Shown piece after piece: positions 3,081 to 53,556 of a stretch of DNA of 64,000 bases. The stretch is from assembly GCA_040754315.1 (NCBI GenBank), contig JBFMCS010000004.1, positions 7,390 to 71,389 of the forward strand. Reading direction: 5' to 3'. Source of the DNA: Bacillota bacterium (GTDB taxonomy: Bacteria; Bacillota; Sulfobacillia; DUSP01; JBFMCS01). The notes beneath the pieces were generated by a model. That model searched no databases, had not been told where the DNA came from, and saw only the letters and a list, made by a program, of their open reading frames with translations. Both the position numbers and the translations under genes were made by a program. Position 1 is the first letter of the stretch. The number at the start of each line of letters is the position of its first letter.

Positions 3081-3120
3081 TGATCATTACCTCCCTCACG
3101 AACCTTGCCGCTTTGGAATG

Positions 3121-6517: not shown

Positions 6518-6884
6518 TAGCCTTGCCTCCCCCGGATGAATGGTATCCCAGTGTGATTGGCGTGCTGGAGCCCTTTCGGCGGCATAGCACCAGGTTCGCC
6601 CATTGCCACCGGCCAGGCTTGAGGTATACCGCTACCTTACCATGGTCAGACCTTCTAGACTAGGATTCGACCCCCTGGCGAAAAGTCTTTTTTTTCAAAG
6701 GGCTTTTGTCTCCCTGCGGTCAGAAGGTTGTCGTCGTGGGTCCTAGTAAGCCAGGATACTAAACTTCTTACGAAAAGTCGCTCCCGGTAAAGCCTGTCGC
6801 TTCACAACCGGGCAGTGCGAGGAACTATTCCACCTCACCGCTCGCCGGCTGCTGGAAAATACCCTGAAGCGCTTGTTAACGGTC

Positions 6885-6950
6885 ATGCAATTCACCCACC
6901 CTAGAGTCAAGTAATTCACCTACTGTCGGTGTCAAGTAATTCACCCACAC
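6885..6950 (+). repeat. Three closely spaced direct repeats, (gtc)aagtaattcaccc(ac), probably transposase-binding sites at a transposon end.
   Basis: The copies sit at about 6887-6900 (partial), 6907-6924 and 6931-6948. They are seen directly in the sequence. Confidence 0.5.
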
Positions 6951-6993
6951 AGGGGGTCGTGGAGCGCAGCGAAGAATGCAGCCATTCTGGTGA

Positions 6994-8942: not shown

Positions 8943-9908
8943 ATGGTGCAGCCTACGGTCCAGGAGGCCAGGGCCAGGAGAAGGATATGCCAGCGGCTGG
9001 CGGAGGTCTTTGCCCGGTGGGGCTTCGCTGAGATTGAGGTGCCCTTGCTGCAACCGGCTGAAGATCTTGAACCCGTTGCAGGGCCCCAGCTCATGGAGTC
9101 CTCCTACAAGGTCATTGACCACCAGGGGAGGGTGCTTTGCCTGAGGCCGGACTTCACCGCGGCCATATCCAGCATGGTCACAGGCCAGTGGGCCTGCGAG
9201 CCGAGACCGCTGCGTCTTTCTTACTTCGGTTCAGTGTTTCGCCGGGGGACCTCTGGCATGCGGGAGACGCCCCAGGCCGGGGTGGAGAACATCGGGTCTC
9301 CGCACGGCGATCCTGATGCCGAGTGCATTGCCGTGGCGCTGGAGGGACTACAGGCTGTGGGGGTCCGGGAGGTTCACGTGGCCTTGGGGGATGCCGGCGT
9401 GCTCCGGGCCTGGCTGGACCAGGCGGGATTGACCCCGGACACCCTTAGAAGGACCGTCCAGGCCCTCTCTGGCAAGGATCTCGTATCCCTTGAGCGACTC
9501 CTGGGTGCCGCCGGGGGGGGGCTTGCCCGCTCCTTCCAGGACCTCCTTGATACCCGGGGAGACGGGGATGCCCTGGACAGGGCCTTGAAGGCCTGGCAGG
9601 GCAGTTTGCTTGAGCCTCACCTGGAGGCCCTCCGCTTGACCTACGGGCGCCTCGGGGCCATGGGGCTTTGTGAGAGTGTCTTCGTTGACCTCGGTCTCCT
9701 GCGGGACCTGGACTACTACACAGGCCTGGTATTTGACGTGTACATAAGGGGGCTTGGCGAGCCCGTTGCTGGCGGGGGACGGTACGACGATCTCCTGGGC
9801 CGGATCGGTGCTGCGGAGGCGGCTGTGGGCTTTGCCTATAACGTGGAGGCCATTTCGAAGATATCGACGGAGGGTGCCCTGAGTGGGTTCTCTCTCAGTA
9901 TCCACTAG
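8943..9908 (+). CDS. hisZ: ATP phosphoribosyltransferase regulatory subunit HisZ (HisRS paralog)
   Basis: It resembles class II aaRS-like HisZ and lies immediately upstream of a short-form hisG. Confidence 0.8.
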   Translation: MVQPTVQEARARRRICQRLAEVFARWGFAEIEVPLLQPAEDLEPVAGPQLMESSYKVIDHQGRVLCLRPDFTAAISSMVTGQWACEPRPLRLSYFGSVFRRGTSGMRETPQAGVENIGSPHGDPDAECIAVALEGLQAVGVREVHVALGDAGVLRAWLDQAGLTPDTLRRTVQALSGKDLVSLERLLGAAGGGLARSFQDLLDTRGDGDALDRALKAWQGSLLEPHLEALRLTYGRLGAMGLCESVFVDLGLLRDLDYYTGLVFDVYIRGLGEPVAGGGRYDDLLGRIGAAEAAVGFAYNVEAISKISTEGALSGFSLSIH

Positions 9909-9910
9909 GG

Positions 9911-10579
9911 GTGAGGCGGTTGGATCTTGTTACCTATGCCCTGCCCAAGGGACGCCTCATGAATGGCACGTTGAGGCTTCTCCGGTCAGCGGGGGTGCCC
10001 TGCCCCCAGGAGGACGGGAGGCGTCTTTTACTGGAGATTCCCGAGAAGGGACTTAGGTTCCTTTTCTCCCGGCCCTCGGACGTTCCCGTCTACGTACAGT
10101 ATGGGGCGGCTGACCTCGGCATCTGCGGGAAGGATACCCTCATCGAGATGGGCCCCAAGGTATACGAGGTGCTGGACCTTGGGTTCGGGGCCGGGCGTTT
10201 TGTGCTGGCCACAGTGTCCGAATGGGTGGATCAGGGTTTTGACTGGACAAGGCCTGGGTTGAGGGTGGCCACCAAGTTCCCCAGGATCGCCTCGCTGTTC
10301 CTGGAGAGCCAGGGGGCCAGTCACCACATCATCAAGGTACACGGAGCGGCGGAGCTGGCACCCCGGGTGGGTTTAGCGGAAATGGTATTCGACATAACGG
10401 CCACAGGGAAGACCCTGGCGGAAAACGGCCTCAGGGTGGTGGCCAACGCCGGCACCACAACTGCCAGGCTGGTGGCGAACCCTGCCAGCTACAAGGTGAA
10501 GGCCCGCGAGCTGGGGGACGTCATCGCGAGGGTAAAGGGGTTTATCCAGAGCGAGGGTCACACGCTGGCCGGGCTTTGA
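9911..10579 (+). CDS. hisG: ATP phosphoribosyltransferase, short form
   Basis: It has the LPKGRL motif and HisG-family layout, is ~222 aa, and starts with GTG. Confidence 0.9.
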   Translation: MRRLDLVTYALPKGRLMNGTLRLLRSAGVPCPQEDGRRLLLEIPEKGLRFLFSRPSDVPVYVQYGAADLGICGKDTLIEMGPKVYEVLDLGFGAGRFVLATVSEWVDQGFDWTRPGLRVATKFPRIASLFLESQGASHHIIKVHGAAELAPRVGLAEMVFDITATGKTLAENGLRVVANAGTTTARLVANPASYKVKARELGDVIARVKGFIQSEGHTLAGL

Positions 10580-10601
10580 TGAAGGCCATCGGGGAGAGGC
10601 G

Positions 10602-11189
10602 GTGAACCTGTTGCGCGAAGTGGAGCACAAGAGGACCACACGGGAGACGTCCATTCATCTCCGGATCAACCTGGACGGTAATGGCGAGTCCCGTGTTGAG
10701 GTTGGAGGCTTTCTCGGTCACATGCTGGATACCCTCTCAAGGCATGGCATGTTTGACCTCGAGCTCAAGGCCGAGGTGTTCCTTGACCCTGACGGGCACC
10801 ACACAGCAGAGGACCTTGGGATCGTACTGGGAGAGGCCATAAGGAGGTCTGTGGGCCAGGGCCAAGGCCTGTCCAGGTTCGGCCACTCGGTGGTGCCCAT
10901 GGACGATGCCCTGGTGGAGGTGGCCCTGGACCTGTCGGGAAGGTCCTACTGCAACTACGACCTGGGGCCTGTGGGGGACCTGGGGGTCAATGCGTTCTTA
11001 CGCGAGTTCTTCCTGGGTTTTTCCCGCAGGGCCGAGGCCACCATCCACCTGAGGAGGCTGGCGGGTCACGATGCACACCACGTGGGCGAGGCTGCCTTCA
11101 AGGCCTTTGGGCGGGCTCTCTCCCAGGCTGTCTCACCCGATCCCAGGCTCAGCGGGAGGGCGCTGTCAACCAAGGGCGTGCTGTCGTGA
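10602..11189 (+). CDS. hisB: Imidazoleglycerol-phosphate dehydratase
   Basis: It has the RTTRETSI, HHTAEDLGI and HLRRLAGHDAHH motifs of IGPD. Confidence 0.9.
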   Translation: MNLLREVEHKRTTRETSIHLRINLDGNGESRVEVGGFLGHMLDTLSRHGMFDLELKAEVFLDPDGHHTAEDLGIVLGEAIRRSVGQGQGLSRFGHSVVPMDDALVEVALDLSGRSYCNYDLGPVGDLGVNAFLREFFLGFSRRAEATIHLRRLAGHDAHHVGEAAFKAFGRALSQAVSPDPRLSGRALSTKGVLS

Positions 11190-11932
11190 ACATGCTGGTG
11201 CTGCCGGCCATTGACATTATGGGAGGCCAGTGCGTCCGGCTCCTGAAGGGCAGGCCGGAGGAGAGCAGGGTCTACCACCAAGATCCCCTGGACGCCGCCC
11301 TCCGGTGGGAGCAAGAAGGGGCCGGAGCCCTCCACCTGGTGGACCTGGATCGTGCCCTGGGAGGGAAGCCAAATTCCGATGCTGTCAGGCGCATCGTCGA
11401 CTCCGTGACGGTCCCCGTGCAGTTGGGGGGGGGCTTGAGGAGCAGGGAGGCGGTAAAGGAGGCGTTTGGGTCCGGGGTGTGGAGGGTCGTCATGGGCACC
11501 GCCGCGCTGAGGTCCAGGGACCTTCTTTGCTGGTGCCTGGACCGGTTCGGGGACAGGGTGGTAGTCGCCCTTGATCACAGGGAGGACCGGGTGGTGGTTT
11601 CCGGCTGGACCCAGGAGCACGGCCTCTCATTGAAGGAGGCTACTGAAACCCTGCTGGAGCAGGGGGTCAGGGAGGTACTGGCCACCGCGGTAGAACGGGA
11701 TGGCACCATGGAGGGTCCGGATCTTGCAGGCTTGGCCATCCTGGTACGCTCCGGGTTGAGGGTGATAGCATCGGGCGGTGTCACCAGGCTTGAAGACCTG
11801 CGGGACCTCGCGGGGCTGCCTAACCTGACCGGGGTTGTCATTGGAAGGGCTCTCTATGAAGGCGTTTTATCCCTGGGGGAGGTCCTTAGGGTATCCCGTG
11901 GTGAGGGGAGGCTTGATTGTGAGCGAGGTTGA
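11186..11932 (+). CDS. hisA: ProFAR isomerase (HisA)
   Basis: It has the [15 protein letters not shown]-terminus and the (beta/alpha)8 HisA/HisF fold signature. No hisH or hisF is adjacent. Confidence 0.8.
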
Positions 11933-12527
11933 ACAGGGGACACTTACCCCCGTGGTGGTACAGCACGCTATCACGGGACAGGTGCTCATGCTGGCCTATA
12001 CCAACGCTGAGCTCCTGGAGAGAACCGCCAGGGAAGGGCGTGTCTGGTTCTGGAGCAGGTCCAGGGGGGGGCCCTGGCTGAAGGGCGCTACCAGCGGGAA
12101 CTACCTGAACGTACAGTCCATCACAATGGACTGTGACCAGGACGCGGTACTGGTGGAGGTGACCCCTGAGGGGCCCGCATGCCATACAGGCAAGACCAGC
12201 TGCTTTCACAGGCCGGTTATGGGTAGTGCATCCCCCGGCATCCTCCTGAAGCTGGGCGGGGTAATCGAGAGCCGGGTGATGAAGAAGCCCGAGGGGTCCT
12301 ACACGGCAGCCCTGGCTGGGAAGGGACCGGAGGCCATACTGAGGAAGGTCTCGGAGGAAGCCTTTGAGGTAGTCCTGGCCGCCAAAGAGGAGGGAGCCCC
12401 GGGCTTGGTGTGGGAGGTTGCTGACCTCTGGTACCACTGCATGGTGCTGTTGAGCGTCTTGGGATACAAGGCCGAGGACGTCCTTGAGGAACTTGCCCGC
12501 AGGGCGAAGAGGGATGAACAAGGGTGA
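11913..12527 (+). CDS. hisI: Bifunctional phosphoribosyl-AMP cyclohydrolase / phosphoribosyl-ATP pyrophosphatase (HisIE)
   Basis: It has the HisI domain (LIPAVVQ-like [19 protein letters not shown]) followed by the HisE MazG-like domain. A TTG or GTG start after a GGAGG RBS is preferred over the ORF-track start, which overlaps hisA. Confidence 0.8.
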
Positions 12528-13036
12528 GTAGGCTGCTTTCCAGAAGGAGGGGATAGAATATACGTGGGCTTGAAAGTACCCTGTGTGAACCGGAGAAGTG
12601 CCCCGAGTGCGGGGCAGGAAGTTACCTCGTACGACCGGATGGTCCGCTTCGGCTGCCGTTCTGAGCATGGGCGACAAGTACGACCTTCATATCCTGGCCT
12701 CTTGGCCACCCTCCAGGTTAAGGGCTCTCCATTAGCCCAGGCCCTGCGCTTACTGTGTTCCTCGGGCCCTCTTGCATCCTAGTCACTGGATCCAGGCGTC
12801 GTAGCCCCTGGGGCCTGGAACACACTACGGGGATGGTAGCCCAGGTTCCGCCACAGCATCGCAATAGTGTCTCCAGTGCGGGCCACTTATACCCCCTTTT
12901 TTATGACTCTCTTATGTGCGACCTGCCTTTTTACATGCCTTTTTTACAGGCTTTCCTGTACAGTCTAAGGGGGGTAGTCTCCTGCCCTCAGCCCAATTGT
13001 CTGACTCGGATGCATTCCCTGTAAGGGAGGATCAGC

Positions 13037-13525
13037 ATGTCACATCAGTGTGAGTGTCTGGAAACTCTCCTGGAGGAGAGTATCAAGCGGAATGGCCATG
13101 GGTTTGTGTCCATCCTTCAGGACATTCAAGAAGACTGCGGTTACTTGCCCGAGGATGCACTGAGGGCCCTTGCCAGGAAGACAGGGGTTCCCCTGAGTGA
13201 GATCTACCGCACAGCAACCTTCTACAACTACTTCTCACTTGTACCCCGCGGGAAGCACCAGGTAGTCGTATGCACAGGGACGACTTGTCACGTCCGCGGA
13301 GCCAAGCGGGTGTCCAGGGAGATCACAAAGAACCTGGGAATACGCGTGGGCGAGGTGACTGAGGATCGTGAGTTCTCACTAGAGTCTGTAAACTGCCTTG
13401 GATGCTGCGCCTTTGCTCCCGTGGTGGTGGTGGATGGCAGGCACTACGGTAACCTGACTCCTGACGAGGTGAAGAAGGTGTTAGACTCCGTCAAGCGAGA
13501 AGCCGTGACCGTTGGAGCCACATGA
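13037..13525 (+). CDS. NuoE/HydC-like thioredoxin-fold [2Fe-2S] protein (24-kDa subunit homolog)
   Basis: It has the C...C...CxxC pattern (CTGTTCHVRG...CLGCCAFAP) of the NuoE family. Confidence 0.8.
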   Translation: MSHQCECLETLLEESIKRNGHGFVSILQDIQEDCGYLPEDALRALARKTGVPLSEIYRTATFYNYFSLVPRGKHQVVVCTGTTCHVRGAKRVSREITKNLGIRVGEVTEDREFSLESVNCLGCCAFAPVVVVDGRHYGNLTPDEVKKVLDSVKREAVTVGAT

Positions 13526-13539
13526 AAGGAGAACCGTTG

Positions 13540-16500
13540 ATGAGCGTCACACCAAGAAGACTCTTGGCACCAGGCGACCTGGCTGAGTTGGCAGATTGCC
13601 TTAAGACTCGTCTAGATACTCGGAAACCCTGCGTGACGGTGTGTGGCGACACCGGCTGTACGGTTTGCGGCTCCTTGGGGCTTGCAGAGAGTTTCCGGAA
13701 CATCATCGACAAGAAGGGACTTAGTGACAAGGTTGACTTGAAGGTCACCGGATGTCTCGGCTTCTGTGAGCAGGCGCCAGCGGTCATGGCCATGCATGAT
13801 GAGGTCCTGTACTGCAAGGTGACCCCGGATGACGTGGAAGAATTGCTGGAGGCGATCATTGCTGGCAAAGTAGTGGATCGCCTGGTATATGCGGATCCCG
13901 TTACGGGTCGGATTATCCCCCGTGCCAGGGATATTCCCTTCTATAGCAGGCAAACACGCATGCTCCTGGAAGCCAATTGGCATACGAACCCCGTTGACAT
14001 CTACGACTACATTGCCAGGGGCGGGTACCACGCTCTTTCTCGCGTGCTGGCGGGAATGAACCCTGAAGAGGTTATCGCTATGATGAAAGAGGCATGCCTT
14101 CGGGGAAGAGGTGGAGCAGGGTTTCCCACTTGGCTGAAGTGGGATATCGCACGAAAGCAGCTCGAGAAGGAAAGATACATGATCTGTAATGCTGACGAGG
14201 GAGACCCAGGAGCCTTCATGGATCGTAGCATCCTGGAAGGTAACCCTCACGCGCTTTTGGAAGGGATGCTGATAGCAGGCTTCGCCATAGGATCGAGCAA
14301 TGGGATAATCTACGTAAGGGCAGAGTATCCCACTGCGGTAGCCAAGATCCAGCACGCTATCCAACAGTGCCAGGATCTTGGCCTTGTTGGGAAGGATATC
14401 CTCGGGTCTGGGTTTGATTTTGACCTGACCATAAGCAAAGGAGCTGGTGCCTTTGTTTGCGGTGAGGAGACAGCCCTGATTCGCGCCGCTGAGGGAGGAG
14501 TTGCCGAACCGCGACAGAAGCCTCCCTACCCTTCCGAATCGGGTTTCAAGGGCAAGCCCACTGTGATTAACAACGTGGAGACCCTGGCCAATGTTCCCAT
14601 CATCGTGGAGAGGGGGGCCGGCGCATACCGCAGTCTCGGGACGGAGAAATCAGGAGGCACGAAGATATTCTGCCTGGTGGGAAAGGTGCTCAATGCTGGG
14701 CTCATAGAGGTTTCCTTTGGGACCAGACTCGGTGATGTCATCTTCGACATTGGTGGCGGAACGAAGAAGGGGAAACGGTTTAAGGCAGTTCAAACCGGTG
14801 GCCCCTCTGGCGGGTGTCTCCCAGCGGACAAACTGAACCTTCATATAGATTTTGAAGAATTGGCTCTGGCGGGTTCCATCATTGGCTCGGGCGGCATGAT
14901 CATAATGGACGAGGATACCTGTATTGTGGATGTGACCCGCTATTTCCTGGGTTTTCTCAAGAGTGAATCCTGCGGAAAGTGCTTTTCCTGCCGTGTGGGA
15001 ATCGAGCGCATGCTTGAGATCGTGGACCGGATTGCTCAAGGCAGGGCAGTGGAGTCAGACCTGGATCTCCTTGAGGAATTAGCCCTCACCGTCAAGGATA
15101 CATCTCTATGCGGGCTCGGCCAGACAGCTCCAAACCCTGTTCTCAGCAGTCTCCGGTACTTCAGGGAGGAGTACCTGGAGCACATAAGACACAAGTTTTG
15201 CCGAGCGACGGTGTGTGAGTCCCTTTTCCGGTCCCCTTGCCAGAATTCGTGCCCCGCGGGTGTGGATGTGCCAATTTACGTCGACCAGATCAGGCATGGT
15301 GAGTTCATTGAAGCCTACGAGACAGTTCAAAAGAATAATCCCTTCCCTGTTGTCTGCGGGAGAGTGTGTCATCATCCCTGCGAGTCTAGGTGCCGGAGAG
15401 AGCAGATAGATAAGCCGGTAGCCATCAGGGCGTTGAAGCGCTTTGCCGCCGATTACGCCGTGAGTAATGGCCAAAGACCCGCGAGGGTTCCAGGCATTAA
15501 GAGCAGCAAGAAGGTAGCGGTCATCGGGGCTGGGCCAGCCGGGCTGACCGCTGCTTTCTATCTAGGCCGGAAAGGCCACCAGGTAACGGTATTCGAGTCC
15601 TCTCCGGTGCCCGGCGGCATGCTGGCCCTAGGGATCCCCGATTACCGGTTGCCCAAGGACTCTCTCAATGCTGACATCGAGGCCATCAGGAACTCAGGGG
15701 TCAAGATGAGGATGAACTCGGCGCTTGGCAGGGACTTCACTCTCCAAGACCTGAGGGAGGATGGTTACGAGGCCATATTCCTGGCCATAGGTGCCCATAA
15801 GGACAGGGATATGGGGATCCCCGGGGAGGGGCTGGAGGGTGTCCTCTCCAGCGTCGAATTCCTTCGGGCCGTCAATTTGGGGCATCAGGTGGACGTCGAC
15901 GGCAAAGCGGTGGCAGTCGTAGGGGGAGGAAACGCAGCCATTGACGCGGCCCGGGTTGCCCTGCGAAAGGGCGCTCGTGTGGTACACATACTTTACAGGC
16001 GCCGGCAGGAAGACATGCCAGCGATGAAAGAGGAGATCGCTGACGCACTGGCTGAGGGAATACACCTCACACAGTTGACTGCGCCAGTGCGAATACTGGG
16101 TGACGATAAGGTTAGGGCCATCGAGTGTGTCCGTATGGGACTGGGGGACTTCGACGAGACCGGAAGGAGGCGCCCGGTGGCGGAAGCAGGCACGGAGTTT
16201 CACCTTCCTGTGGATGTTGTTATCCGGGCCATCGGCCAGGCGCCGGATGTTCCAGATACTGTCCGCAAGACCGTGTCGATAGCTGGAAACGGGACGATTG
16301 CTGTTGACTCTCGTAGTCTCTCCACTCAGGTAGCGGGGGTGTTTGCCGGCGGTGATTGTGTTACAGGTCCAGCCATGGCCATTGATGCCATAGCCCAGGG
16401 CAGGATAGCAGCAGCCTCAATTGACAAGTACCTGGGGGGTGACGGTGTGCTGTGGGGAGATGACGAAGAGCCCGTACGCCAGTTCCGGTCGGAGATCATC

Positions 16501-16692
16501 CAGACTCCGCTGGATCGCTATGCTCCAGGGAAGATCCCGTTGAGTGAACGAATCAGGGGCTTCCGGGAGGTAGAAATGGCGTACTCCGAGGAAGTCGCGT
16601 GTAATGAGGCGTCCCGTTGCCTGCGGTGTGACGTGCAGCAAGATGACGAAGAAGAACAAGACAACCGGCACTCTTTGGCGGGAGCATCCTAG
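13540..16692 (+). CDS. Fusion protein: a thioredoxin-like 2Fe-2S domain, the NuoF/HydB (51-kDa) FMN/NADH module, a Cys-rich Fe-S linker, and a GltD/NfnB-like FAD/NAD(P)H pyridine-nucleotide-disulfide oxidoreductase domain
   Basis: The NuoF core carries GGAGFPT, the FMN site and the 4Fe-4S motif ESCGKCFSCRVG. A Cys-rich linker follows (CRATVCESLFRSPCQNSCPAG...VCGRVCHHPCESRC). The GltD-like Rossmann motifs VAVIGAGPAGL and VAVVGGGNAAIDAA come next. An ATG at 13540 after an AAGGAG RBS is the likely start. Confidence 0.8.
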   Translation: MSVTPRRLLAPGDLAELADCLKTRLDTRKPCVTVCGDTGCTVCGSLGLAESFRNIIDKKGLSDKVDLKVTGCLGFCEQAPAVMAMHDEVLYCKVTPDDVEELLEAIIAGKVVDRLVYADPVTGRIIPRARDIPFYSRQTRMLLEANWHTNPVDIYDYIARGGYHALSRVLAGMNPEEVIAMMKEACLRGRGGAGFPTWLKWDIARKQLEKERYMICNADEGDPGAFMDRSILEGNPHALLEGMLIAGFAIGSSNGIIYVRAEYPTAVAKIQHAIQQCQDLGLVGKDILGSGFDFDLTISKGAGAFVCGEETALIRAAEGGVAEPRQKPPYPSESGFKGKPTVINNVETLANVPIIVERGAGAYRSLGTEKSGGTKIFCLVGKVLNAGLIEVSFGTRLGDVIFDIGGGTKKGKRFKAVQTGGPSGGCLPADKLNLHIDFEELALAGSIIGSGGMIIMDEDTCIVDVTRYFLGFLKSESCGKCFSCRVGIERMLEIVDRIAQGRAVESDLDLLEELALTVKDTSLCGLGQTAPNPVLSSLRYFREEYLEHIRHKFCRATVCESLFRSPCQNSCPAGVDVPIYVDQIRHGEFIEAYETVQKNNPFPVVCGRVCHHPCESRCRREQIDKPVAIRALKRFAADYAVSNGQRPARVPGIKSSKKVAVIGAGPAGLTAAFYLGRKGHQVTVFESSPVPGGMLALGIPDYRLPKDSLNADIEAIRNSGVKMRMNSALGRDFTLQDLREDGYEAIFLAIGAHKDRDMGIPGEGLEGVLSSVEFLRAVNLGHQVDVDGKAVAVVGGGNAAIDAARVALRKGARVVHILYRRRQEDMPAMKEEIADALAEGIHLTQLTAPVRILGDDKVRAIECVRMGLGDFDETGRRRPVAEAGTEFHLPVDVVIRAIGQAPDVPDTVRKTVSIAGNGTIAVDSRSLSTQVAGVFAGGDCVTGPAMAIDAIAQGRIAAASIDKYLGGDGVLWGDDEEPVRQFRSEIIQTPLDRYAPGKIPLSERIRGFREVEMAYSEEVACNEASRCLRCDVQQDDEEEQDNRHSLAGAS

Positions 16693-16710
16693 AAGCAGGG
16701 GTGTATTTGA

Positions 16711-17415
16711 ATGCTGGAAATAACGCTGAACGGTCTTAGGGTTGGTGTGGATGAGGGCATGACGATACTGGAGGCAGCTCGGTTCTATGGGATCGAGATA
16801 CCGACCCTCTGTTACCTTGATGGCCTGAGCCCATACGGGGCATGCCGGCTTTGCCTGGTGGAGGTAGGCCCGCCGGAGAGGCCGAGATTAGTCTCATCCT
16901 GCATTCACAGGGTAGAAGAGGGCCTTGTGGTCAGGACGCACTCTGAACGAGTGATGATGAGGAGGAAGATGCTTCTGGAACTGTACCTGGCGACCTGCCC
17001 CTCATCCAAGACCATCCAGGATCTCGCCTCAAAGCATCACGTTACTGAGGTCCGCTTCAAGCCTCGGAACGAGGACTGCATTCTCTGCGGGCTTTGTGTC
17101 AGAATGTGCGCCGAACAGATGCAGGGCAAGGCCATCGATTTTGGTCACCGGGGAGCAGATCGAAGAGTCCTGACGCCGTTTGACAAGAAATCGGAGGATT
17201 GCCGGTTATGCGGTGGTTGCATGTACGTCTGTCCTGCGTGCCAAGCCAGGTGCCAAGGCCCGCAAGAGAGCGAGCCTGTGTGCAATGCCTGTCTCAACCT
17301 GCCTGTGGCATGCCTGGAACGTTTCGAGCATGCCATGTGCTATATGGACCCGTGCGTTGCCTGTGAGAGACAGCCCACAGAGATCGTTACGACCGAAAGG
17401 AGAAGCGACCCATGA
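16711..17415 (+). CDS. NuoG/HndD N-terminal-like Fe-S protein (2Fe-2S ferredoxin fold plus 4Fe-4S motifs). It has no catalytic domain.
   Basis: It has the TLCYLDGLSPYGACRLCLVEV 2Fe-2S motif and downstream CxxCxxC clusters. It is only 234 aa. Confidence 0.7.
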   Translation: MLEITLNGLRVGVDEGMTILEAARFYGIEIPTLCYLDGLSPYGACRLCLVEVGPPERPRLVSSCIHRVEEGLVVRTHSERVMMRRKMLLELYLATCPSSKTIQDLASKHHVTEVRFKPRNEDCILCGLCVRMCAEQMQGKAIDFGHRGADRRVLTPFDKKSEDCRLCGGCMYVCPACQARCQGPQESEPVCNACLNLPVACLERFEHAMCYMDPCVACERQPTEIVTTERRSDP

Positions 17416-18992
17416 GTTTTTCTCGAATCAACGCAAGTGCTGCAAGCCTGACCAAGAATCGCACCGTGGATTCGATCAGTTCTCTTAGCGGCATGTGCGC
17501 CACATGCATAGATGGGTGCATTGGGATGTGCGAGGTGGGCAAGTCCGCCTACCGGGGTCATGAGGTTATATACCCTCAACCGTTTGGGCTTATCAGCACG
17601 GCCTCGGAGAAGAACTACCCCTTGGACTACTCTCACTTCTCCATCATGGGCACCACGGTGGGCGCCGTTGGAGTGGAACCCGACAGCGACAAGGCCATCT
17701 TCCCCTCCGTTAACGTGGAGGCACGCATGGGTAAGGGAGAGGGCATTAAAACCAGGTTGCCTCTGGTTGTCTCGGGAATGGGTTCCACACGTATCGCCAG
17801 TGTCAACTGGGAGGGCCTGGCCATCGGGGCAGCCCTGGCCGGTATCGTTGTCACCATAGGCGAGAACATCTGCGGCATGGACCCCCAGTCCGAGATCCGT
17901 AACGGGAAGGTGGCAAGGAGCCCAGAGCTGGCCAGGCGTGTCCGGCTCTTCAAAGACTGGCAGGTGGACGGCTACGGCGATGTGGTGCTCCAGGCCAATG
18001 TCGAAGACACCAGCCTCGGAGTGCAGGAGTTCGGCATCAGGGAACTCGGCGTGACCAGCGTGGAGCTGAAGTGGGGCCAGGGGGCGAAGGACATCGGTGG
18101 CGAGGTAAAGATCTCCGACCTGGAAAAGGCCAAGATGCTCAAGAGCCGGGGATACGTGGTGCTGCCCGATCCGGAGGATCCCAATGTCATTGAGGGGTTC
18201 AAGCGGGGTGCCTTCAAGGAGTTCGAGCGCCACTCCAGGGTCGGCATGGTTGAGCCTGAGGGCTTCATCAGGCGGGTGCAGGATCTGAGGAAGGCCGGGG
18301 CCAAGTGCGTGCTTCTGAAGACGGGGGCCTTCAGGCCCGCGGATATGGCCCGGGCGGTCAAGTACTGCTCCATGGCGGGGGTGGATGTACTCACGGTGGA
18401 CGGAGCTGGGGGCGGGACAGGAATGAGCCCCTGGCGCATGATGAACGAGTGGGGTGTGCCACCGGTAGAGATGCATTCTCTAGCGCGGGAGTTCTGTGAC
18501 AGGCTGGCGGCAAAGGGCGAGTACGTGCCGCACCTGGTGTTTGGCGGGGGCTTCGTCATGGAGGACCAGATGTTCAAGGGCCTTGCCCTGGGGGCCCCAT
18601 ACGTGAAGGCCATTGGAATGGCCCGGGCGCCACTGGCCGCGGCCATGGTGGGCAAGACAATTGGCAGGAGCATCGACGAGGGCCGTCTCCCCGTGTATGT
18701 TGAACGTTTCGGGAGGTCCAAGGAGGAGGTCTTCGTCACGGCCACGGAGCTGAGGCAGCTAGTGGGCAACGACCGGTTTGCGGAACTCCCTGCGGGTGCC
18801 ATTGGACTCTTCACGTTCTGCGAGAGGCTTTCCCAAGGCCTCAAGCAGCTTATGGCAGGCAGCAGGAAGTTTGCCTTGGAGTACGTGGACCGGTCCGACA
18901 TCGCTGCATTGACCAGGCACGCCAGTGAGGTCAGCGGGATCGACTTCGTCATGGAGGCAGACAGGAACGAGATAGAGGAGATCCTTGGATAA
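17412..18992 (+). CDS. Glutamate-synthase (GltB) FMN-binding central-domain family protein with an N-terminal Cys-rich cluster. This is the stand-alone archaeal-like GltS domain 2.
   Basis: The 526-aa protein has the N-terminal CATCIDGCIGMCEVGK motif. It has the TIM-barrel FMN domain signature of PF01645-type proteins (GAGGGTG, LVFGGG). Confidence 0.75.
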   Translation: MSFSRINASAASLTKNRTVDSISSLSGMCATCIDGCIGMCEVGKSAYRGHEVIYPQPFGLISTASEKNYPLDYSHFSIMGTTVGAVGVEPDSDKAIFPSVNVEARMGKGEGIKTRLPLVVSGMGSTRIASVNWEGLAIGAALAGIVVTIGENICGMDPQSEIRNGKVARSPELARRVRLFKDWQVDGYGDVVLQANVEDTSLGVQEFGIRELGVTSVELKWGQGAKDIGGEVKISDLEKAKMLKSRGYVVLPDPEDPNVIEGFKRGAFKEFERHSRVGMVEPEGFIRRVQDLRKAGAKCVLLKTGAFRPADMARAVKYCSMAGVDVLTVDGAGGGTGMSPWRMMNEWGVPPVEMHSLAREFCDRLAAKGEYVPHLVFGGGFVMEDQMFKGLALGAPYVKAIGMARAPLAAAMVGKTIGRSIDEGRLPVYVERFGRSKEEVFVTATELRQLVGNDRFAELPAGAIGLFTFCERLSQGLKQLMAGSRKFALEYVDRSDIAALTRHASEVSGIDFVMEADRNEIEEILG

Positions 18993-19042
18993 CCTCAGGA
19001 TTGGGCCGAGTAGGGGAGAGACCTGAAAGGGGGACTCACACA

Positions 19043-19543
19043 ATGGCTAGCATCCTGGAGTATGCAGGAATCAAGGTGCCGGCGGGAGAGATGCTGAAGG
19101 AGGCTCTGATATACTGCCAGGCCAAGACTGGCAGGAAAGATGCCCTGGAACTAATCAGGAAGGGTGAGCCAACGGCAACAGGCTACTTCCGGTACAGGCT
19201 TGCCCAGGAGATCGGGTCCCTTCTGGGACAGGCGGATAATACCATCACCCAGGTATACCTGTACCCGGAGGAGGCCCTCGAGGAGAATGCTCCGCCAACG
19301 GTACCCCTGACACTGGTGGTGTGCACCGAAAGGCGCACGGCGGCCCTGGACGCTGTGGTCGAGAGTCTGGATGGCGACCTCTTGGCGGAGTACCGGAAGA
19401 TGGTGGAGCCAGCAGCGGACGGAGTGACTTCCTTCTCAAACATATGTCTGGTAGAACAAGAGGAATTATACCAGCGCAAGGGGCTCAGTGCCATAATAGG
19501 CTCGCTGAGTACACCCAGCTTCTGCGTTTGGCGGCGCCATTAA
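19043..19543 (+). CDS. Hypothetical protein, co-oriented and tightly spaced with the oxidoreductase genes
   Basis: The ORF runs from MASILEYAGIKVP with no recognisable domain. The start was chosen at the internal ATG. Confidence 0.35.
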   Translation: MASILEYAGIKVPAGEMLKEALIYCQAKTGRKDALELIRKGEPTATGYFRYRLAQEIGSLLGQADNTITQVYLYPEEALEENAPPTVPLTLVVCTERRTAALDAVVESLDGDLLAEYRKMVEPAADGVTSFSNICLVEQEELYQRKGLSAIIGSLSTPSFCVWRRH

Positions 19544-19573
19544 CTAGCAATCCGGGCAGTAAACCCTCCTATA

Positions 19574-21001
19574 TTGCCTGCGATGGCCATGTCATCGCAG
19601 GATTTTCTTTTCCCGGCTAGAAGTGTAGGCAGTGGACTCCACGGTAAGGGTGTGATGAGAGTGGGCAACGGGCAGGGATGGGCCCGCCCCTGTGATGAAG
19701 GGAAGTACCAGGCCTTTCACGCGTGCCGTGACTTCCGCGCCTGCGGTGTCGCGGGGCTCTGCCGCAGCCTCATTGCTGACTTCAACACGGATACCTTCAT
19801 TCCCCAGGCTGTCTTGCTTCTCACAAGACACCTGCCCTTCGACGCCGGTGTGCTCTTTCTATACGATGACACCCTGGACAGGCTGGTCCCGGCATCGTGT
19901 TACGGTTACGAGATGGATGCCCTGGAGCACCTGGCGCTTGGGGACTCCATCATGTACGAGGTTTTTGACACCGGCAAGCCGAGGGTCTCCCGTTCGAGCA
20001 AGCGTATCCGCGAGATCCAGGCCCAGCTCACCAGGAGCGGGAAGGGTAGTCTTCCCATGTCCTCCTGCATGGTGTGTGTCCCGTTGCGCCTGGATTCCGT
20101 TGCCCTGGGGTGCGTGGTGCTGGAGAGCCGCTCTGCCCAGGTGGTAGTAGGCCGGCGTCTCCTGTCCTGCGTCATCCATGCCCTGGAACTCCTGGTGCTC
20201 TTTGTTCACAAGGCTCAAACTATGCGGCAGAACCAGGAGAAGGGCTTCTCGGAGCTGGTTTCCACCCTCTCCCATGAGCTCAGGACCCCCCTGACGTGTA
20301 TCAAGGGCTACACTACCACGCTTCTGGAGAACCCCGAGCTGGACCACGTCAACGGCCGGGAGTTCCTGGAGATAATAGACAGTGAGAGCGATACCATGAA
20401 TAACCTCATCAAGGACCTGATGGACTCCTCTCTAATCGAGGCGGGGTTCCTGCGGATAAGGAAACAGCCGATGCTGATGACGAAGATCGTACATAAGGCC
20501 GTGGAGAACGCCAGCGTTCAGACGAGGAAGCACAGGTTTGTCGTGAGCATCTCCCAGGACTTCCCGGTCTTGGAGGGGGACCCGGACAGGATGAAGCAGG
20601 TCCTGGACAATATCCTGGACAATGCCGTGAAGTACTCCCCTGAAGGGGGCTTGATAGTAATCAATGGAAGGGTTGTGGGCAGGGAAGCCATTATCAGCAT
20701 AGCCGACCAGGGCATGGGGATTGCCCCAGAGGACCTGAACAGGCTCTTCGAGAAGTTCTTCAGGGTCAAGTCGGAGATGGCCGGGACGGGCCTGGGGCTG
20801 CCCGTGGCCCATGAGATCATCGAAAAACACGGGGGACGGATATGGGCAGAGAGTGCGCCCGGGAAGGGGAGCACCTTCTTCTTCGCGCTGCCCCTCACAG
20901 ACATTTCCCGTAGGAACGGGGGGCCGTCCCAGGTGCCGGATACTGCAAGGGGAACGAGGGAGGGCCTAGATGAAGAAGCACCTGATTCTAGTAGTCGATG
21001 A
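19574..21001 (+). CDS. Cytoplasmic GAF-domain sensor histidine kinase (KdpD C-terminal-like)
   Basis: A GAF region is followed by an HisKA H-box (LSHELRTPL) and an HATPase_c domain (N, G1, G2 boxes). There are no TM segments. It overlaps the response-regulator gene. Confidence 0.75.
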   Translation: MPAMAMSSQDFLFPARSVGSGLHGKGVMRVGNGQGWARPCDEGKYQAFHACRDFRACGVAGLCRSLIADFNTDTFIPQAVLLLTRHLPFDAGVLFLYDDTLDRLVPASCYGYEMDALEHLALGDSIMYEVFDTGKPRVSRSSKRIREIQAQLTRSGKGSLPMSSCMVCVPLRLDSVALGCVVLESRSAQVVVGRRLLSCVIHALELLVLFVHKAQTMRQNQEKGFSELVSTLSHELRTPLTCIKGYTTTLLENPELDHVNGREFLEIIDSESDTMNNLIKDLMDSSLIEAGFLRIRKQPMLMTKIVHKAVENASVQTRKHRFVVSISQDFPVLEGDPDRMKQVLDNILDNAVKYSPEGGLIVINGRVVGREAIISIADQGMGIAPEDLNRLFEKFFRVKSEMAGTGLGLPVAHEIIEKHGGRIWAESAPGKGSTFFFALPLTDISRRNGGPSQVPDTARGTREGLDEEAPDSSSR

Positions 21002-21719
21002 TGAACCCCGTATACTCAGGCTCATCCAGACCAACCTGAAGCTGGCGGGGTACGCTGTGCTCTGCGCCGGAGACGGGCCCTCGGGATTGGAGATCGTGGA
21101 GAGGGAGAACCCCGACTTGGTTATCCTGGATATTCTCCTGGTGGGTCCAATCGATGGCTACGCGGTATGCGAGCGCATTAGAGAGTTCTCCGATGTTCCC
21201 GTACTGATGCTTACCGCCAAGAGCCAGGACGCGGACAAGATAAGGGGTTTTGACGCTGGGGCAGATGACTACCTGACCAAACCCTTCAGTTCCCAGGAGT
21301 TGCTGGCCAGGGTCAAGGCCATCCTGAGGCGAAGCGGTGAGGGTTCCAAGGTCAAGGGACCCTCGACACTGGTCTGCGGGGAGATCTCCATCAACTTCGC
21401 CCAGGCCAGGATAACCACTGAGCATGCCGGCACGGTGGATCTCACCCCCACCGAGTTCAAGCTCCTCTCGGAGCTGGCTAAGCACCCCAATGAGATCGTG
21501 CTGCACGAAGACTTGCTCACCAGGGTCTGGGGGAGCGAGTACAGAAACGAGGTGGACTACCTCAGGGCCTACATCTGGTACCTCCGGAGGAAACTTGAGA
21601 GGGACCCCTCGCGTCCCCGGTATCTCCTGTCCAGGCAGGGGCTGGGTTACATGCTGGCATGCCCGGGGGATCCGGAGAGTGCTCCGGAGCAGGGAGCCCC
21701 CGGGGAGCCGCCCGGCTAG
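20970..21719 (+). CDS. OmpR-family response regulator (KdpE-like)
   Basis: It has a receiver domain (DDE...D...K) and a winged-helix DNA-binding domain. Confidence 0.85.
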   Translation: MKKHLILVVDDEPRILRLIQTNLKLAGYAVLCAGDGPSGLEIVERENPDLVILDILLVGPIDGYAVCERIREFSDVPVLMLTAKSQDADKIRGFDAGADDYLTKPFSSQELLARVKAILRRSGEGSKVKGPSTLVCGEISINFAQARITTEHAGTVDLTPTEFKLLSELAKHPNEIVLHEDLLTRVWGSEYRNEVDYLRAYIWYLRRKLERDPSRPRYLLSRQGLGYMLACPGDPESAPEQGAPGEPPG

Positions 21720-21749: not shown

Positions 21750-23210
21750 TCAGTTGACCCGGGCTGTGCGGGTCCTGCCCACTAGGTCCACACACCTGTG
21801 GGGGAAGAACTCCCTGAAGATCCGGTAGTAGAGGAGTTCCTCTTTGCTGGAGGGGACGAAGCAGCCCGCCTCACGGGACGCCCGCCTCAGGTCCGAGTCA
21901 CTGACCCTCCTCTCGGCCAGCACCGTCATGAGGCCGCTTGTGCCTGAGCCCAGGTAGAACTTCTCCTTCTTCCTCCACACCACCTCCCGGGGAAGCGCCC
22001 CTAGATAGGCCTTCCTGAGAAACCACTTCTCCGTGGCGTTGCCACCCTCTCGCTTGAGCTTCCACTCCAGGGGGAGGGAGACTGAGAAGTCCACCACATC
22101 CAGGTCCATGAAGGGCAGGGCCGGTTCGAGGCCGTGGGCGGCGTTCATGCGGTCCACCCTCTGGAACGCCCCTGAGTGGCCCTGGGTGAGAAGTATCCGG
22201 AGCTCCTTCCTGACGTCATTCTTCCTCTCCAGCGCCTTGAGGTAGTGGTACCCCGCGAAGAGCTCGTCACCGCCCTCACCGCAGAACACCATCTCCATCC
22301 CTGCTTTCCTGGCGAGGCGCGCGGCCATGTAGTTGGCCACCGAACTCCTCACCAGTGGAGCATCGAAGGACTCCAGGTGGTAAATGACATTAGGAAGGCA
22401 CTCCTCTATGTGCCCCAGGCCGTACAGGAAGCGATGGTGCTCTAGCTTCAAGGCCTGGGCCACCAGGGCTGCGGAACTCACGTCACTGCAATCCCGGGTT
22501 CCCACGACGAAGGTGGGCACCCCAGGTTCGAGGCGGGCCACCGCCGCCGAAACGATGCTGGAGTCAACCCCCCCGCTGAGGAGCACGCCCGCCTTCTTCC
22601 CAGAGTCAAGGGACCTTCTGACGGCGGTCTCCATCCTCTGACGGAAGCCCGCCAGTGCCTGGTCCAGTGGAGGCAGGGTCTCCAGTTCCGTGTCGTCCAG
22701 GGAGTAAAAGGGGGTAAGGTGGCCGGGGACTCCCACATGGCCAGGGGGAAAGGTGCGCACGGTCCCGGAAAAGCCCGCAAAGGCCTTGATCTCCGAGGCC
22801 GCCAGCATGCCGCCGGGTGTCACGGCGTAGTAGAGGGGTTTGAGGCCAAAGGGGTCCCTGGCCATGACAACACCCTCGCCGGTGATGAACAGCATGGCGA
22901 AGGGCCCGGACAGGCTCTCCAGGAACTCCGGCCCTCCCCGGCGGTAACCTTCACTGATCTCCTCCGGGCGTAACACCCGGTTCGCGGGGATCTCCCGGGA
23001 CCATTCGCTATCGAGCCCCTGCTGGGACAGGCAGGCCATCCCATCTACATAAACGCCTGCCCTGTCGTCTTGAGACTCGTCGTAGCCGGTGACGAAGGGG
23101 CCCACTTCCCTCAGGCAGCCACTACCTTCTCCCCGATGGCTCATCCGCTCCAGCATGGACAGGACCCTGGCCTGGGCGCCAGATCCGCTGGCCACTGCTA
23201 TTCTTGACAT
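21750..23210 (-). CDS. Asparagine-synthase (AsnB) family amidotransferase lacking the N-terminal Cys nucleophile
   Basis: The C-terminal AsnB synthetase domain has the SGGVDSS PP-loop. The N-terminus is MSRIAVASG instead of MCG. The start was chosen at the ATG at 23210 with a GAGGTGAT RBS rather than the longer ORF-track start. Confidence 0.75.
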   Translation of the reverse strand: MSRIAVASGSGAQARVLSMLERMSHRGEGSGCLREVGPFVTGYDESQDDRAGVYVDGMACLSQQGLDSEWSREIPANRVLRPEEISEGYRRGGPEFLESLSGPFAMLFITGEGVVMARDPFGLKPLYYAVTPGGMLAASEIKAFAGFSGTVRTFPPGHVGVPGHLTPFYSLDDTELETLPPLDQALAGFRQRMETAVRRSLDSGKKAGVLLSGGVDSSIVSAAVARLEPGVPTFVVGTRDCSDVSSAALVAQALKLEHHRFLYGLGHIEECLPNVIYHLESFDAPLVRSSVANYMAARLARKAGMEMVFCGEGGDELFAGYHYLKALERKNDVRKELRILLTQGHSGAFQRVDRMNAAHGLEPALPFMDLDVVDFSVSLPLEWKLKREGGNATEKWFLRKAYLGALPREVVWRKKEKFYLGSGTSGLMTVLAERRVSDSDLRRASREAGCFVPSSKEELLYYRIFREFFPHRCVDLVGRTRTARVN

Positions 23211-23388
23211 AACATCACCTCGTATTAGACTTCTGTGCTGACCGCCAGGCTCATGACAGCCTTCTTCTCCAAGCCTGCAGATACCTTCCTCTTTCGGGAA
23301 ATTGGTTGCCGTTTCCAAGCCGCCCTCCCTGGCATGGCCCATTGGTGGTGTGAATAGGCATATCTATGCGTATCGAGGAGGGAGGCCA

Positions 23389-53178: not shown

Positions 53179-53339
53179 GTCCAGGTTCTCCTCTCGCTCC
53201 CCTAACGGGGTTCGTTAATGTGACGGATAACCTTCTACACAGGCTGCCCAGGTTCCTCTTGTCGTAGACCTAGGTTCCGGGTGAGCGACAGGAGGATTCC
53301 GGTGCCGGGCGGAGAAGGAATGGACTGACAAACCCATAC

Positions 53340-53556
53340 TCTCCGAGCCTGCCTCTCCTAAGGGGTCATCTACGGGAGACAGGCCGTGCCAGCCCCATGG
53401 CTGGCAAACGGTAGGCTGGGAAACCTGCCTGCCCCCCATCGTGGAAAGGAGGCGTCTCTATGAGGAGAAGGCCAGGATCCGGAGCGGTGGTTCTGGCCGA
53501 TCGCGTTTTTTCGGGAAGGATGTCCGGGCAGACCATGGTGAAAGGAGAAGACCATT
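53340..53556 (+). promoter_or_regulatory. Structured leader upstream of tupA with a terminator-like hairpin and U-run (ggccag...ctggcc gatcgcg ttttttc). It is a candidate Moco/Wco-type riboswitch or attenuator, with class unassigned.
   Basis: The GC-rich leader and hairpin plus T6 lie about 40 nt before the tupA RBS. Tungstate/molybdate transporter genes are often controlled by Moco-family riboswitches. Confidence 0.2.

Follow-up and report, generated by a model that had tools for sequence, protein, structure and literature searches.

In this study, we describe a gene cluster at positions 13037-21719 of a 64,000-nucleotide stretch of Bacillota bacterium DNA (contig JBFMCS010000004.1, positions 7,390 to 71,389 of the forward strand; "the window" below means this whole stretch). 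The cluster consists of seven co-oriented genes. The first four encode a NuoE-like protein, a NuoF-GltD fusion, a HoxU-like iron-sulfur (Fe-S) protein, and a flavin mononucleotide (FMN) barrel protein, and this core nuoE-nuoF-hoxU-FMN set is conserved as one unit. The fifth encodes a small hypothetical protein, and the last two encode a sensor histidine kinase and a response regulator. We propose, with a confidence that falls a little short of even, that the five structural genes encode one soluble multi-subunit Fe-S flavoenzyme of the Bfu family, the barrel subunit of which most likely acts on 2-oxoglutarate plus NH3/glutamate. In such an enzyme, the module for the third substrate (hydrogenase, formate dehydrogenase, or NADP site) would be replaced by a separate FMN TIM-barrel subunit, a distant relative of the FMN domain of glutamate synthase (GltS).

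The conserved operon and its predicted subunits

A scan of one genome per species gave at least 593 loci, and the best 80 of these were analysed by tblastn and clustering of open reading frames (ORFs). Genes for HoxU-like, NuoF-like, and NuoE-like proteins lie 5' of the FMN gene, with strand and order unchanged, in 67, 70, and 58 of the 80 loci, respectively, and the loci without a complete nuoE-nuoF-hoxU set are those cut by contig ends. The original prediction for this cluster had named conservation of the gene neighbourhood beforehand as one of the tests of itself, and it came through that test. The 80 loci belong to more than 15 bacterial phyla and two archaeal lineages, including Bacillota, Aminicenantes, Zixibacteria, KSB1, Planctomycetota, Ignavibacteria, Bacteroidota, Acidobacteriota, Dehalococcoidia, and Thermoplasmata, and the FMN protein is 66-75% identical across them. 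No further gene family comes near nuoE, nuoF, and hoxU in frequency. The genes directly 3' of the FMN gene in nine other loci are heterogeneous (MnmG, malic enzyme-PTA, SucC, Na/H exchanger, adenosine deaminase, and HsdM), and therefore the operon normally ends at the FMN gene. A hydrogenase, as the resemblance to HoxEFU might suggest, was considered and rejected; no hydrogenase large or small subunit gene and no H-cluster gene was found in the 80 loci, which were retrieved via the FMN gene.

The proteins of the window were assigned to families by Pfam and NCBIfam profile searches, and the assignments agree with the domain architecture originally proposed (NuoE-like, NuoF-GltD, NuoG-N-like, FMN-domain protein, hypothetical, kinase, and OmpR regulator). 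The genes are co-oriented and tightly packed with the same ORF coordinates as originally given, although they number seven and not six. The first gene (13037..13525, + strand) encodes the BfuC/NuoE/HoxE-like subunit with a predicted thioredoxin-like [2Fe-2S] cluster, C1 (PF01257, 7e-47; HoxE model 1e-42 and NuoE model 1e-39 in NCBIfam). The C1 ligands C79, C84, C120, and C124 are kept at 98-100% in 58 homologues. Whereas this subunit has 162 amino acids (aa) in the window, it has about 280-340 aa in most non-Bacillota loci (for example, L065 3237-4085), where the longer proteins contain an extra C-terminal region of about 120 aa without a Pfam match. In one locus, L041, a small double-zinc-ribbon-like gene lies between nuoE and nuoF.

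The second gene (13522-16692, + strand), which overlaps nuoE by 4 nucleotides (nt), encodes a fusion protein of 1056 aa with the domain order thioredoxin-like 2Fe-2S, Complex1_51K (Pfam, 2e-43), SLBB, NADH_4Fe-4S (9e-32), Fer4_20, and Pyr_redox_2. The NuoF-GltD fusion was correctly recognized in the original prediction, but its third domain, the N-terminal 2Fe-2S domain, was overlooked. The BfuB part (aa 1-556; 13522..15189, + strand) is predicted to hold this N-terminal [2Fe-2S] cluster, B5, together with the NADH/FMN site, the [4Fe-4S] cluster B1, and the Cys3His site B2. In the PDB, the N-terminal ~570 residues are closest to B subunits of bifurcating enzymes whose structures have been solved, with 7t2r_B (A. 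mobile NiFe-HydB) at the top (2e-191) and further matches to 7q4v_B, 9bov_B, 8oh5_B, and 9n5u_B; besides the A. mobile protein, those matched are HydB of A. woodii and T. kivui, NfnB of C. saccharolyticus and T. sibiricus, and StnB of S. ovata. The B1 ligands C484/C487/C490/C530 align with those of the B subunits of proven bifurcating enzymes, and the B2 ligands, C467 and H554-x5-C560-x4-C565, are in register with HIRDKKCxxxxC of 9bov_B, 7q4v_B, 8oh5_B, and 7t2r_B; both sets are 100% conserved in 62 homologues (36 fused and 26 unfused). The B5 domain matches PF01257 over residues 36-111 (E=7e-10), and its C78 and C82 are kept at 97-100%, while its first Cys pair lies in a badly aligned stretch. 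It has been reported that sites B2-B5 are absent from non-bifurcating NuoF homologues, both complex-I-type and others (PMC9304861), and that the B2 histidine is diagnostic in that it separates bifurcating Bfu enzymes from non-bifurcating NuoF homologues (PMC12018979). Among the features of Bfu enzymes, the locus contains BfuC with C1, BfuB with NADH/FMN and B1, the B2 site, B5, and a BfuA-type Fe-S connector, but not B3/B4. The C-terminal 2x[4Fe-4S] ferredoxin-like domain that carries B3/B4 is missing in the BfuB of the window, and a Fer4_20 plus flavin adenine dinucleotide (FAD)/NAD(P)H module is found in its place.

This NfnL/GltD-type module (aa 557-1056; 15190..16692, + strand), with two predicted [4Fe-4S] clusters (Fer4_20), an FAD site, and an NAD(P)H site, matches NF009410 of NCBIfam (4.5e-151) and conserves the motifs GAGPAG and GGGNAAIDAAR. 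The best PDB matches of residues 570-1038 are to the NADPH module, residues 101-568, of NfnA/StnC (9bov_A, 1e-119; 9n5u_A; 8oh5_C). The NuoF-GltD fusion (~1050 aa) is present in 36 loci including the window, whereas NuoF is unfused (~620 aa, with C-terminal 2x[4Fe-4S]) in about 27, and the unfused homologues of L002 and L082 keep the B3/B4 Fer4 dicluster ferredoxin-like domain. The closest relatives of the window locus have no GltD module. Since the NuoF core of the window is most similar (71%) to unfused Bacillota proteins while its GltD part shares no more than 49% identity with the GltD part of any other fusion, the alignments suggest that the exchange of the ferredoxin-like domain for GltD occurred more than once. 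The fusion is thus facultative, and it is already documented in hydrogenases (PMC11406978, PMC11216029).

The third gene (16711..17415, + strand) encodes a short BfuA/HoxU-like Fe-S subunit (Fer2_4, Fer4_7) that matches the HoxU and [FeFe]-hydrogenase N-terminal models of NCBIfam. Because its 234 aa hold Fe-S motifs only and no catalytic domain, it is predicted to be an electron wire and not an enzyme. In 67 homologues, the 2Fe-2S ligands C34, C45, C48, and C64 and the 4Fe-4S motifs C123-133 and C164-174 are 97-100% conserved, and eight further C-terminal cysteines (C177-C218) are 93-99% conserved.

The fourth gene (17412..18992, + strand; 4-nt overlap with hoxU) encodes a 526-aa FMN (beta/alpha)8-barrel protein, the presumed catalytic subunit, of a divergent PF01645 type. 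Its sole Pfam match is a partial one to PF01645 Glu_synthase (E=1e-11, profile positions 186-308 of 369), and NCBIfam gave no match for it. In an alignment of 20 sequences, the mean column identity is 80%, and C29, C32, C36, and C40 (CxxCxxxCxxxC), QGAK226, R246, R273-H274-S-R276, K303, and DGxGGGTGMSP are invariant. The N-terminal CxxCxxxCxxxC is probably the site of a [4Fe-4S] cluster. The AlphaFold2 model made with the same alignment (pLDDT 68, pTM 0.76) is a (beta/alpha)8 barrel, mostly confident over about residues 100-526, with residues 1-96 unmodelled. The fold matches of this model are FMN barrels, among which IDI-2 and alpha-hydroxy-acid oxidases are closer than GltS. The order of the motifs GENxCGMD, QGAKxxGGE, R246, ERHSR, LKTG, and DGxGGGTGMSP appears GltS/IDI-2-like rather than alpha-hydroxy-acid-oxidase-like, and it serves as a lead rather than a test.

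Homologues of the FMN protein fall into more than 8000 clusters; the matches listed show 66-92% identity and represent widely separated phyla, Thermoplasmata archaea among them. When 1.84 billion representatives were searched exhaustively, about 1,058 50%-identity representatives were reached at E<=0.001, and because there are just these, the family appears to be a tight, isolated clade of PF01645. Second copies of the barrel gene were also observed. In L009, from a Dethiobacter metagenome-assembled genome, a paralogue 58% identical (2129-3712) without nuoEF-hoxU genes of its own lies about 1 kb 5' of the nuoE-nuoF-hoxU-FMN operon and is flanked by two IclR-type regulator genes, and L080 carries a partial second copy (6431-6985).

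Proposed electron path, substrate, and alternatives

From these cofactor motifs and family relations, we infer that the structural proteins form a complex with the following electron path. A hydride would pass from NADH to the FMN bound in the NuoF part, and the electrons would then run through B1 and the clusters of the HoxU-like protein to the N-terminal Cys4 cluster of the barrel, and from there to the barrel FMN. The invariant Cys4 motif of this highly conserved protein appears suited to accept them. The barrel FMN would reduce a C=N or C=O bond, likeliest that of 2-iminoglutarate formed from 2-oxoglutarate and free ammonia, to yield glutamate. The enzyme would be required to work glutaminase-free, because no glutaminase is encoded nearby. 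A second branch would lead from C1 to B2 and onward, and would end at the ferredoxin-binding 2x[4Fe-4S] domain in the unfused form or at the NADP(H)/FAD module in the window. An exergonic substrate reduction could in this way be coupled to the reduction of ferredoxin or NADP+, and in the reverse direction both donors could feed the reaction. Expression would be under the control of dedicated signalling proteins, namely the GAF-kinase/OmpR pair in the window and a kinase/NtrC-sigma54 pair or IclR elsewhere.

The couple 2-oxoglutarate plus NH3/glutamate is our leading candidate for the substrate, at somewhat less than an even chance, because of the Pfam family of the barrel, the GltD partner, and the glutamate dehydrogenase (GDH)/glutamine synthetase (GlnA)/NtrC context. 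Of about 63 loci, 36 have the fusion to a GltD-type module, which is GltB's natural partner, and this counts for a glutamate-synthase-like role. GDH-type ELFV dehydrogenases, all with glutamate dehydrogenase models as their best NCBIfam matches, are found on the same strand in nine loci from at least six phyla, either upstream, downstream, or inside the operon (L052). By a rough estimate, which is to be read with the phylogenetic non-independence of the loci in mind, a single-copy gene such as gdh would be met by chance in well under one of 80 stretches of about 16 kb. In addition, type I GlnA is present above the cut-off in three loci, a protein with a PPDK_N domain in six, and a histidine kinase with an NtrC-type sigma54 activator upstream in 22 of the 80. 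These recurrent neighbours (GDH, GlnA, NtrC-type) make a role in nitrogen metabolism plausible. Such a role had also been hinted at in the original prediction, which relied for this on an AsnB-like gene and a partial his operon next to the cluster. The hint itself is thus plausible, but not on those grounds. The AsnB-like gene was rejected as a part of the system, as it is not a recurrent neighbour family across the 80 loci, and the his link is weak, with a hisF-like gene immediately 5' of nuoE in only two other loci, both of Dehalococcoidia (L069 4113-4883 and L070 4232-4939; in L070, GlnA lies two genes beyond it, further upstream).

Several observations weigh against this assignment. The FMN protein lacks the Cx5Cx4C 3Fe-4S motif of GltS, since its barrel has no conserved Cys. 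When the PDB was searched with its sequence and with a profile, designed TIM barrels but no solved GltS came up; with a wider profile that includes paralogues down to 31% identity (31-53%), the searches reached IDI-2 (E=0.002) and, no better than E=0.28, GltS, in the FMN-phosphate region only. With a Pfam match that is itself partial, the relation between the barrel and GltS appears weak. The earlier statement that both halves of glutamate synthase are present was therefore too strong. At no conserved position in the 80 loci is a glutaminase, central, or GXGXG domain encoded; the original prediction had rightly reported the glutaminase domain as absent, for the FMN protein has none either. If the enzyme were a glutamate synthase that uses ammonia, a GDH within its operon would duplicate its function, and in L006 a LarA-family 2-hydroxy-acid racemase (best match, malate-racemase family) and a TRAP dicarboxylate-type transporter are encoded directly downstream, in the company of IclR regulators. 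The 2-oxoglutarate/glutamate couple is also much more positive than NAD+/NADH. It also lies far above the third substrates of known Bfu enzymes, which are of mid potential (PMC9304861), and therefore the classical Bfu energetics are not directly applicable.

Alternatively, the same complex could act on another 2-oxo acid, 2-hydroxy acid, or imine, coupled to NADH and ferredoxin like Ldh-Etf or Bcd-Etf; the reaction could be 2-oxoglutarate to 2-hydroxyglutarate, or the substrate could be malate, lactate, or another amino-acid-derived 2-oxo acid. We consider this unlikely. It agrees with the nearest solved folds after IDI-2, which are mandelate dehydrogenase, lactate oxidase, and glycolate oxidase, with the IclR regulators of L006 and L009, which are typical of organic-acid catabolism, and with malic enzyme and succinyl-CoA synthetase as occasional neighbours, and the GDH neighbours would then supply 2-oxoglutarate. 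However, the DGxGGGTG motif is of the GltS/IDI-2 type, and the His/Arg pair of alpha-hydroxy-acid oxidases follows the FMN-contacting Lys, whereas the invariant H274/R276 of the FMN protein precede K303. In addition, Glu_synthase is the best Pfam family, at 1e-11 to 1e-17, while FMN_dh is absent or reaches 8e-6 at best in relatives, and the LarA/TRAP context occurs in a single locus. Such a substrate would also leave the GlnA and NtrC-type neighbours without explanation.

Another unlikely possibility, which we rate much the same, is that the complex does not bifurcate at all and is a plain NADH/NADPH-dependent reductase, in which a wire like the N-module of complex I leads to the FMN subunit and the extra Bfu sites are leftover or structural. 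The likely substrates are reducible by NAD(P)H alone according to established thermodynamics, the presumed ferredoxin-binding domain is gone in the fused form, and Zn occupies B2 and B5 in certain Bfu enzymes (PMC12018979). On the other hand, NuoF homologues of that plain kind lack B2-B5 (PMC9304861), whereas here the B2 ligands including the diagnostic His are fully kept in all 62 homologues, C78/C82 of the N-terminal 2Fe-2S domain are nearly invariant, and the unfused relatives retain the complete ferredoxin-like domain with B3/B4. 

If the complex does bifurcate with 2-oxoglutarate as substrate, it would use the large free-energy drop of NADH-driven reductive amination of 2-oxoglutarate to reduce ferredoxin, or NADP+ in the fused form. 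We regard this particular combination as quite unlikely. As the couple is so positive, the plausible logic would be an NADH-driven bifurcation in which substrate reduction is exergonic and the reduction of ferredoxin or NADP+ is endergonic. Such energetics would, as a matter of speculation, follow the logic of Etf-type enzymes and not the mid-potential-donor logic of hydrogenase-type Bfu enzymes.

Two further explanations are poorly supported, and we consider each very improbable. The first is oxidative-stress defence, in which the barrel would pass electrons from NAD(P)H or ferredoxin to peroxide- or oxygen-reducing proteins or would reduce such species itself. The stand-alone GltS-like FMN/Fe-S protein CD0828 contributes to H2O2 resistance (PMC11980386), a rubrerythrin-linked Bfu enzyme (Rub-Bfu) is among those predicted by Schut et al. 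(PMC9304861), and rubrerythrin and desulfoferrodoxin genes lie directly 5' of the operon in L002 (3500-4603), a 75%-identical Bacillota relative, in a context that recalls the rbr-perR-sor-CD0828 operon of C. difficile. This context, however, is seen in one of the 80 loci, whereas the recurrent neighbours are nitrogen-metabolism genes, and CD0828 belongs to the canonical archaeal-type subfamily with Cx5Cx4C and a rubredoxin domain, both of which are absent in the FMN protein. The second is that two independent enzymes lie side by side, an Nfn/Stn-like NADH/NADPH/ferredoxin transhydrogenase, for which the products of nuoE, nuoF-gltD, and hoxU hold every NfnABC module and which needs no fourth subunit, and an unrelated FMN enzyme; but the FMN gene follows hoxU in every locus with flanking sequence, across more than 15 phyla and with or without the GltD module, the unfused version would be left without a third substrate, the genes overlap, and the invariant Cys4 motif of the barrel implies an Fe-S partner.

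Electron-bifurcating Bfu enzymes are central to anaerobic energy conservation. The partners of Bfu enzymes so far are hydrogenase, formate dehydrogenase, NADP, aldehyde, and a few predicted ones, and this operon would add a chemically different type, an FMN barrel related to redox enzymes of amino acids and 2-oxo acids. The operon is common, as it occurs in at least 593 species-level genomes with a level of conservation usual for core metabolism, and its carriers are largely uncultured sediment and subsurface lineages, in which the genes are probably labelled 'NADH dehydrogenase' and 'glutamate synthase'. If 2-oxoglutarate/glutamate is indeed the substrate couple, nitrogen assimilation or amino-acid fermentation would be tied to ferredoxin-based energy conservation. 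If, moreover, the enzyme bifurcates, many anaerobes that live on little energy, members of uncultured phyla and Thermoplasmata archaea among them, would couple primary nitrogen assimilation, or the reverse process in the breakdown of glutamate, directly to energy conservation. If the substrate differs, a very common enzyme still has no name.

Regulator genes and surroundings in the window

The fifth gene of the cluster (19043..19543, + strand; alternative start 19001) encodes a small hypothetical protein of 166 aa without a Pfam or NCBIfam family. It belongs to the Bacillota version of the locus only, and the protein database gave only two close relatives; homologues 37-44% identical occupy the same position in L002-L004, and a family-less gene of 163 aa takes this position in L082-L084. 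It is followed by an intrinsic-terminator-like hairpin at 19577..19601 (+ strand), a consensus match only, at the boundary between the structural and the regulator genes; its stem of 11 bp includes 7 GC pairs and precedes the T-run ATTTTCTTTT.

The sixth gene (19655..21001, + strand) encodes a cytoplasmic sensor histidine kinase with a GAF-like sensor, HisKA, and HATPase_c (Pfam); the GAF domain is below threshold in the window, and GAF_2 is on record in a 75%-identical homologue (L082). Its start is most likely 19655 rather than 19574, because of the gene call on the identical NCBI contig and the terminator-like hairpin at 19577-19601. The layout is therefore one of five structural genes, a terminator-like site, and then the kinase and regulator genes. 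The seventh gene (20970..21719, + strand) encodes an OmpR-family response regulator (Response_reg 4e-29, Trans_reg_C 4e-20), and a regulator of this type is kept 3' of the operon in L002, L003, and L082-L084. The dedicated two-component system of the original prediction thus holds insofar as signalling genes are recurrently attached to the operon, but their type differs, GAF-kinase/OmpR in the window against NtrC-sigma54 or IclR in other loci.

In the loci of the NtrC type, elements like -24/-12 promoters are more frequent, being found in 7 of 22 loci with a sigma54-type regulator as against 1 of 35 without. A Cys-rich ORF of about 100-150 aa (around 115), with repeated CxxC...C and no Pfam family, lies 5' of nuoE in 13 loci, between the sigma54 regulator gene and nuoE (for example, L065 2727-3182 and L016 2823-3176), and probably begins a sigma54-dependent operon. 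This ORF is absent from the window; the small hypothetical protein of the window (hyp180) was compared with it as a possible counterpart and found to be unrelated.

Upstream of the cluster lies the partial his operon mentioned above, which is indeed present and consists of hisZ, hisG, hisB, hisF, and hisIE (8943-12527, + strand) without hisD, hisC, hisH, and hisA. The 509 bp between hisIE and nuoE (12528..13036, + strand), a presumed untranslated leader/promoter region, contain no ORF with a family match. A search of this region against Rfam gave no match even at E<=1, so that a riboswitch or leader RNA 5' of nuoE is unsupported, and a sigma-70 consensus site was sought in it and not found. 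On the other side, the AsnB-like gene (21750-23342, - strand) is convergent with the regulator gene. It has an Asn_synthase domain (3e-59) and only a partial GATase domain, and there is no Cys after any candidate start Met, in keeping with the missing nucleophile noted originally.

Some further genes were recorded in passing. In L014, L018, L026, and L068, a TfrA/L-aspartate-oxidase-like flavoprotein (551 aa) is encoded downstream on the opposite strand, convergent with the FMN gene. After it comes a gene for an Fe-S subunit in three of these loci (L014, L018, and L026), and two of them (L014 and L018) also have one for an M42 aminopeptidase there. Elsewhere in the window, a Moco/tungsten riboswitch (RF01055; 57 bits, E=4e-11) at 53329-53467 (+ strand) lies upstream of genes for a PBP_like_2 solute-binding protein and an ABC ATPase (53557-54414 and 54688-56211), which are probably a molybdate/tungstate uptake system. 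The window also encodes an aldehyde:ferredoxin oxidoreductase (AFOR_N/AFOR_C), a tungsten enzyme, at 4670-6517 (- strand) and a 477-aa MttB-family protein of the trimethylamine methyltransferase superfamily (E=2e-97) at 56625-58058 (+ strand).

Comparison with known systems

Among the systems nearest in design are NfnABC and Stn (S. ovata 8OH5, C. saccharolyticus 9BOV, and T. sibiricus 9N5U), NADH-dependent ferredoxin:NADP+ transhydrogenases of the Bfu type. Like the locus, they have a NuoE-like C subunit, a B subunit with FMN, B1, the Cys3His site B2, and an N-terminal 2Fe-2S domain, and an NfnL/GltD-type NADPH-FAD module with two 4Fe-4S clusters, and each half of the fusion protein has its best PDB matches among them. 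However, the NADPH module of NfnABC is inserted in a large A subunit with a NuoG-like/pterin-like body, whereas that of the locus is fused to the C-terminus of B, where it replaces the ferredoxin-like domain. Unlike NfnABC, which has three subunits only, the locus has an A subunit reduced to a HoxU-like stub of 234 aa and a fourth subunit, the FMN barrel, and half of the homologous operons carry no NADPH module.

The Bfu family as a whole shares with the locus a BfuBC core and an Fe-S A subunit connecting to a third-substrate module, and a module in the form of a separate subunit corresponds to the type 2/3 Bfu layout (PMC9304861). Schut et al. (2022, PMC9304861) list the classes or partners FeFe, NiFe, Nfn, Fdh, F420, Wor, Bam, Codh, Por, Mbh, Nuo, and Rub, in contrast to all of which the partner in the locus is an FMN TIM barrel with a partial PF01645 match. 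The third substrate of the locus is also likely to be of high potential, unlike H2, formate, or NADPH. The word 'glutamate' is absent from the classification paper and its supplement (PMC9304861), and full-text searches of the literature outside subscription journals found no report that combines a PF01645 protein with a NuoE/NuoF/HoxU-like module. The original statement that no characterised enzyme is known to have this architecture agrees with both the Bfu classification and the literature searched. The locus is most likely a new partner class of a known, Bfu-type kind of enzyme, which may have been described before.

The replacement of B3/B4 also has precedents. In the sub-type I BfuB of Hydrogenedentota [FeFe]-hydrogenases, B3/B4 are replaced by DPD_II (Fer4_20) and an FAD/NAD(P) domain (PMC11406978), and the HydB of Thermoplasmatota hybrid hydrogenases likewise has a GltD-type fusion (PMC11216029). 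Those complexes carry hydrogenase catalytic subunits, whereas the locus has the FMN barrel instead.

Like GltBD, the locus joins a GltD-type NADPH/FAD/2x[4Fe-4S] input module to an FMN barrel, here one that matches the Pfam family of the GltB domain weakly and in part, and has a QGAK-type motif and nitrogen-metabolism neighbours. Unlike GltBD, it has no glutaminase, central, or GXGXG domain, it has an N-terminal Cys4 motif where GltS has a 3Fe-4S cluster, and an NADH/FMN core of the bifurcation type is interposed; the likeness to solved GltS is marginal in both sequence and fold.

Finally, the archaeal-type GltS-domain-2 proteins (M. jannaschii MJ1351, C. difficile CD0828, and putative FGltS) resemble the FMN protein in that they are PF01645-type FMN barrels, some 500 aa long and extended at the N-terminus by a metal-cluster region. 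Their functions are mostly putative, and they occur in combination with varied electron-input modules (rubredoxin, FrhB). A protein of 800 aa from the representative search, P0260, joins a 4Fe-4S dicluster and an FrhB/FdhB F420-binding module to a barrel 35% identical to the window protein, and its search of PDB sequences gave no GltS match either. P0260 resembles the predicted F420-dependent glutamate synthases of methanogens, which are themselves without characterisation (PMC3448663). The fusion of barrel relatives to other electron-input modules, as in P0260, fits a reductase that is fed by whichever reductant is available. In contrast to the window family, the archaeal-type proteins keep Cx5Cx4C (CD0828) and are covered by Pfam over more of the domain, whereas the window family is a separate and very tight clade that is always linked to nuoE-nuoF-hoxU.

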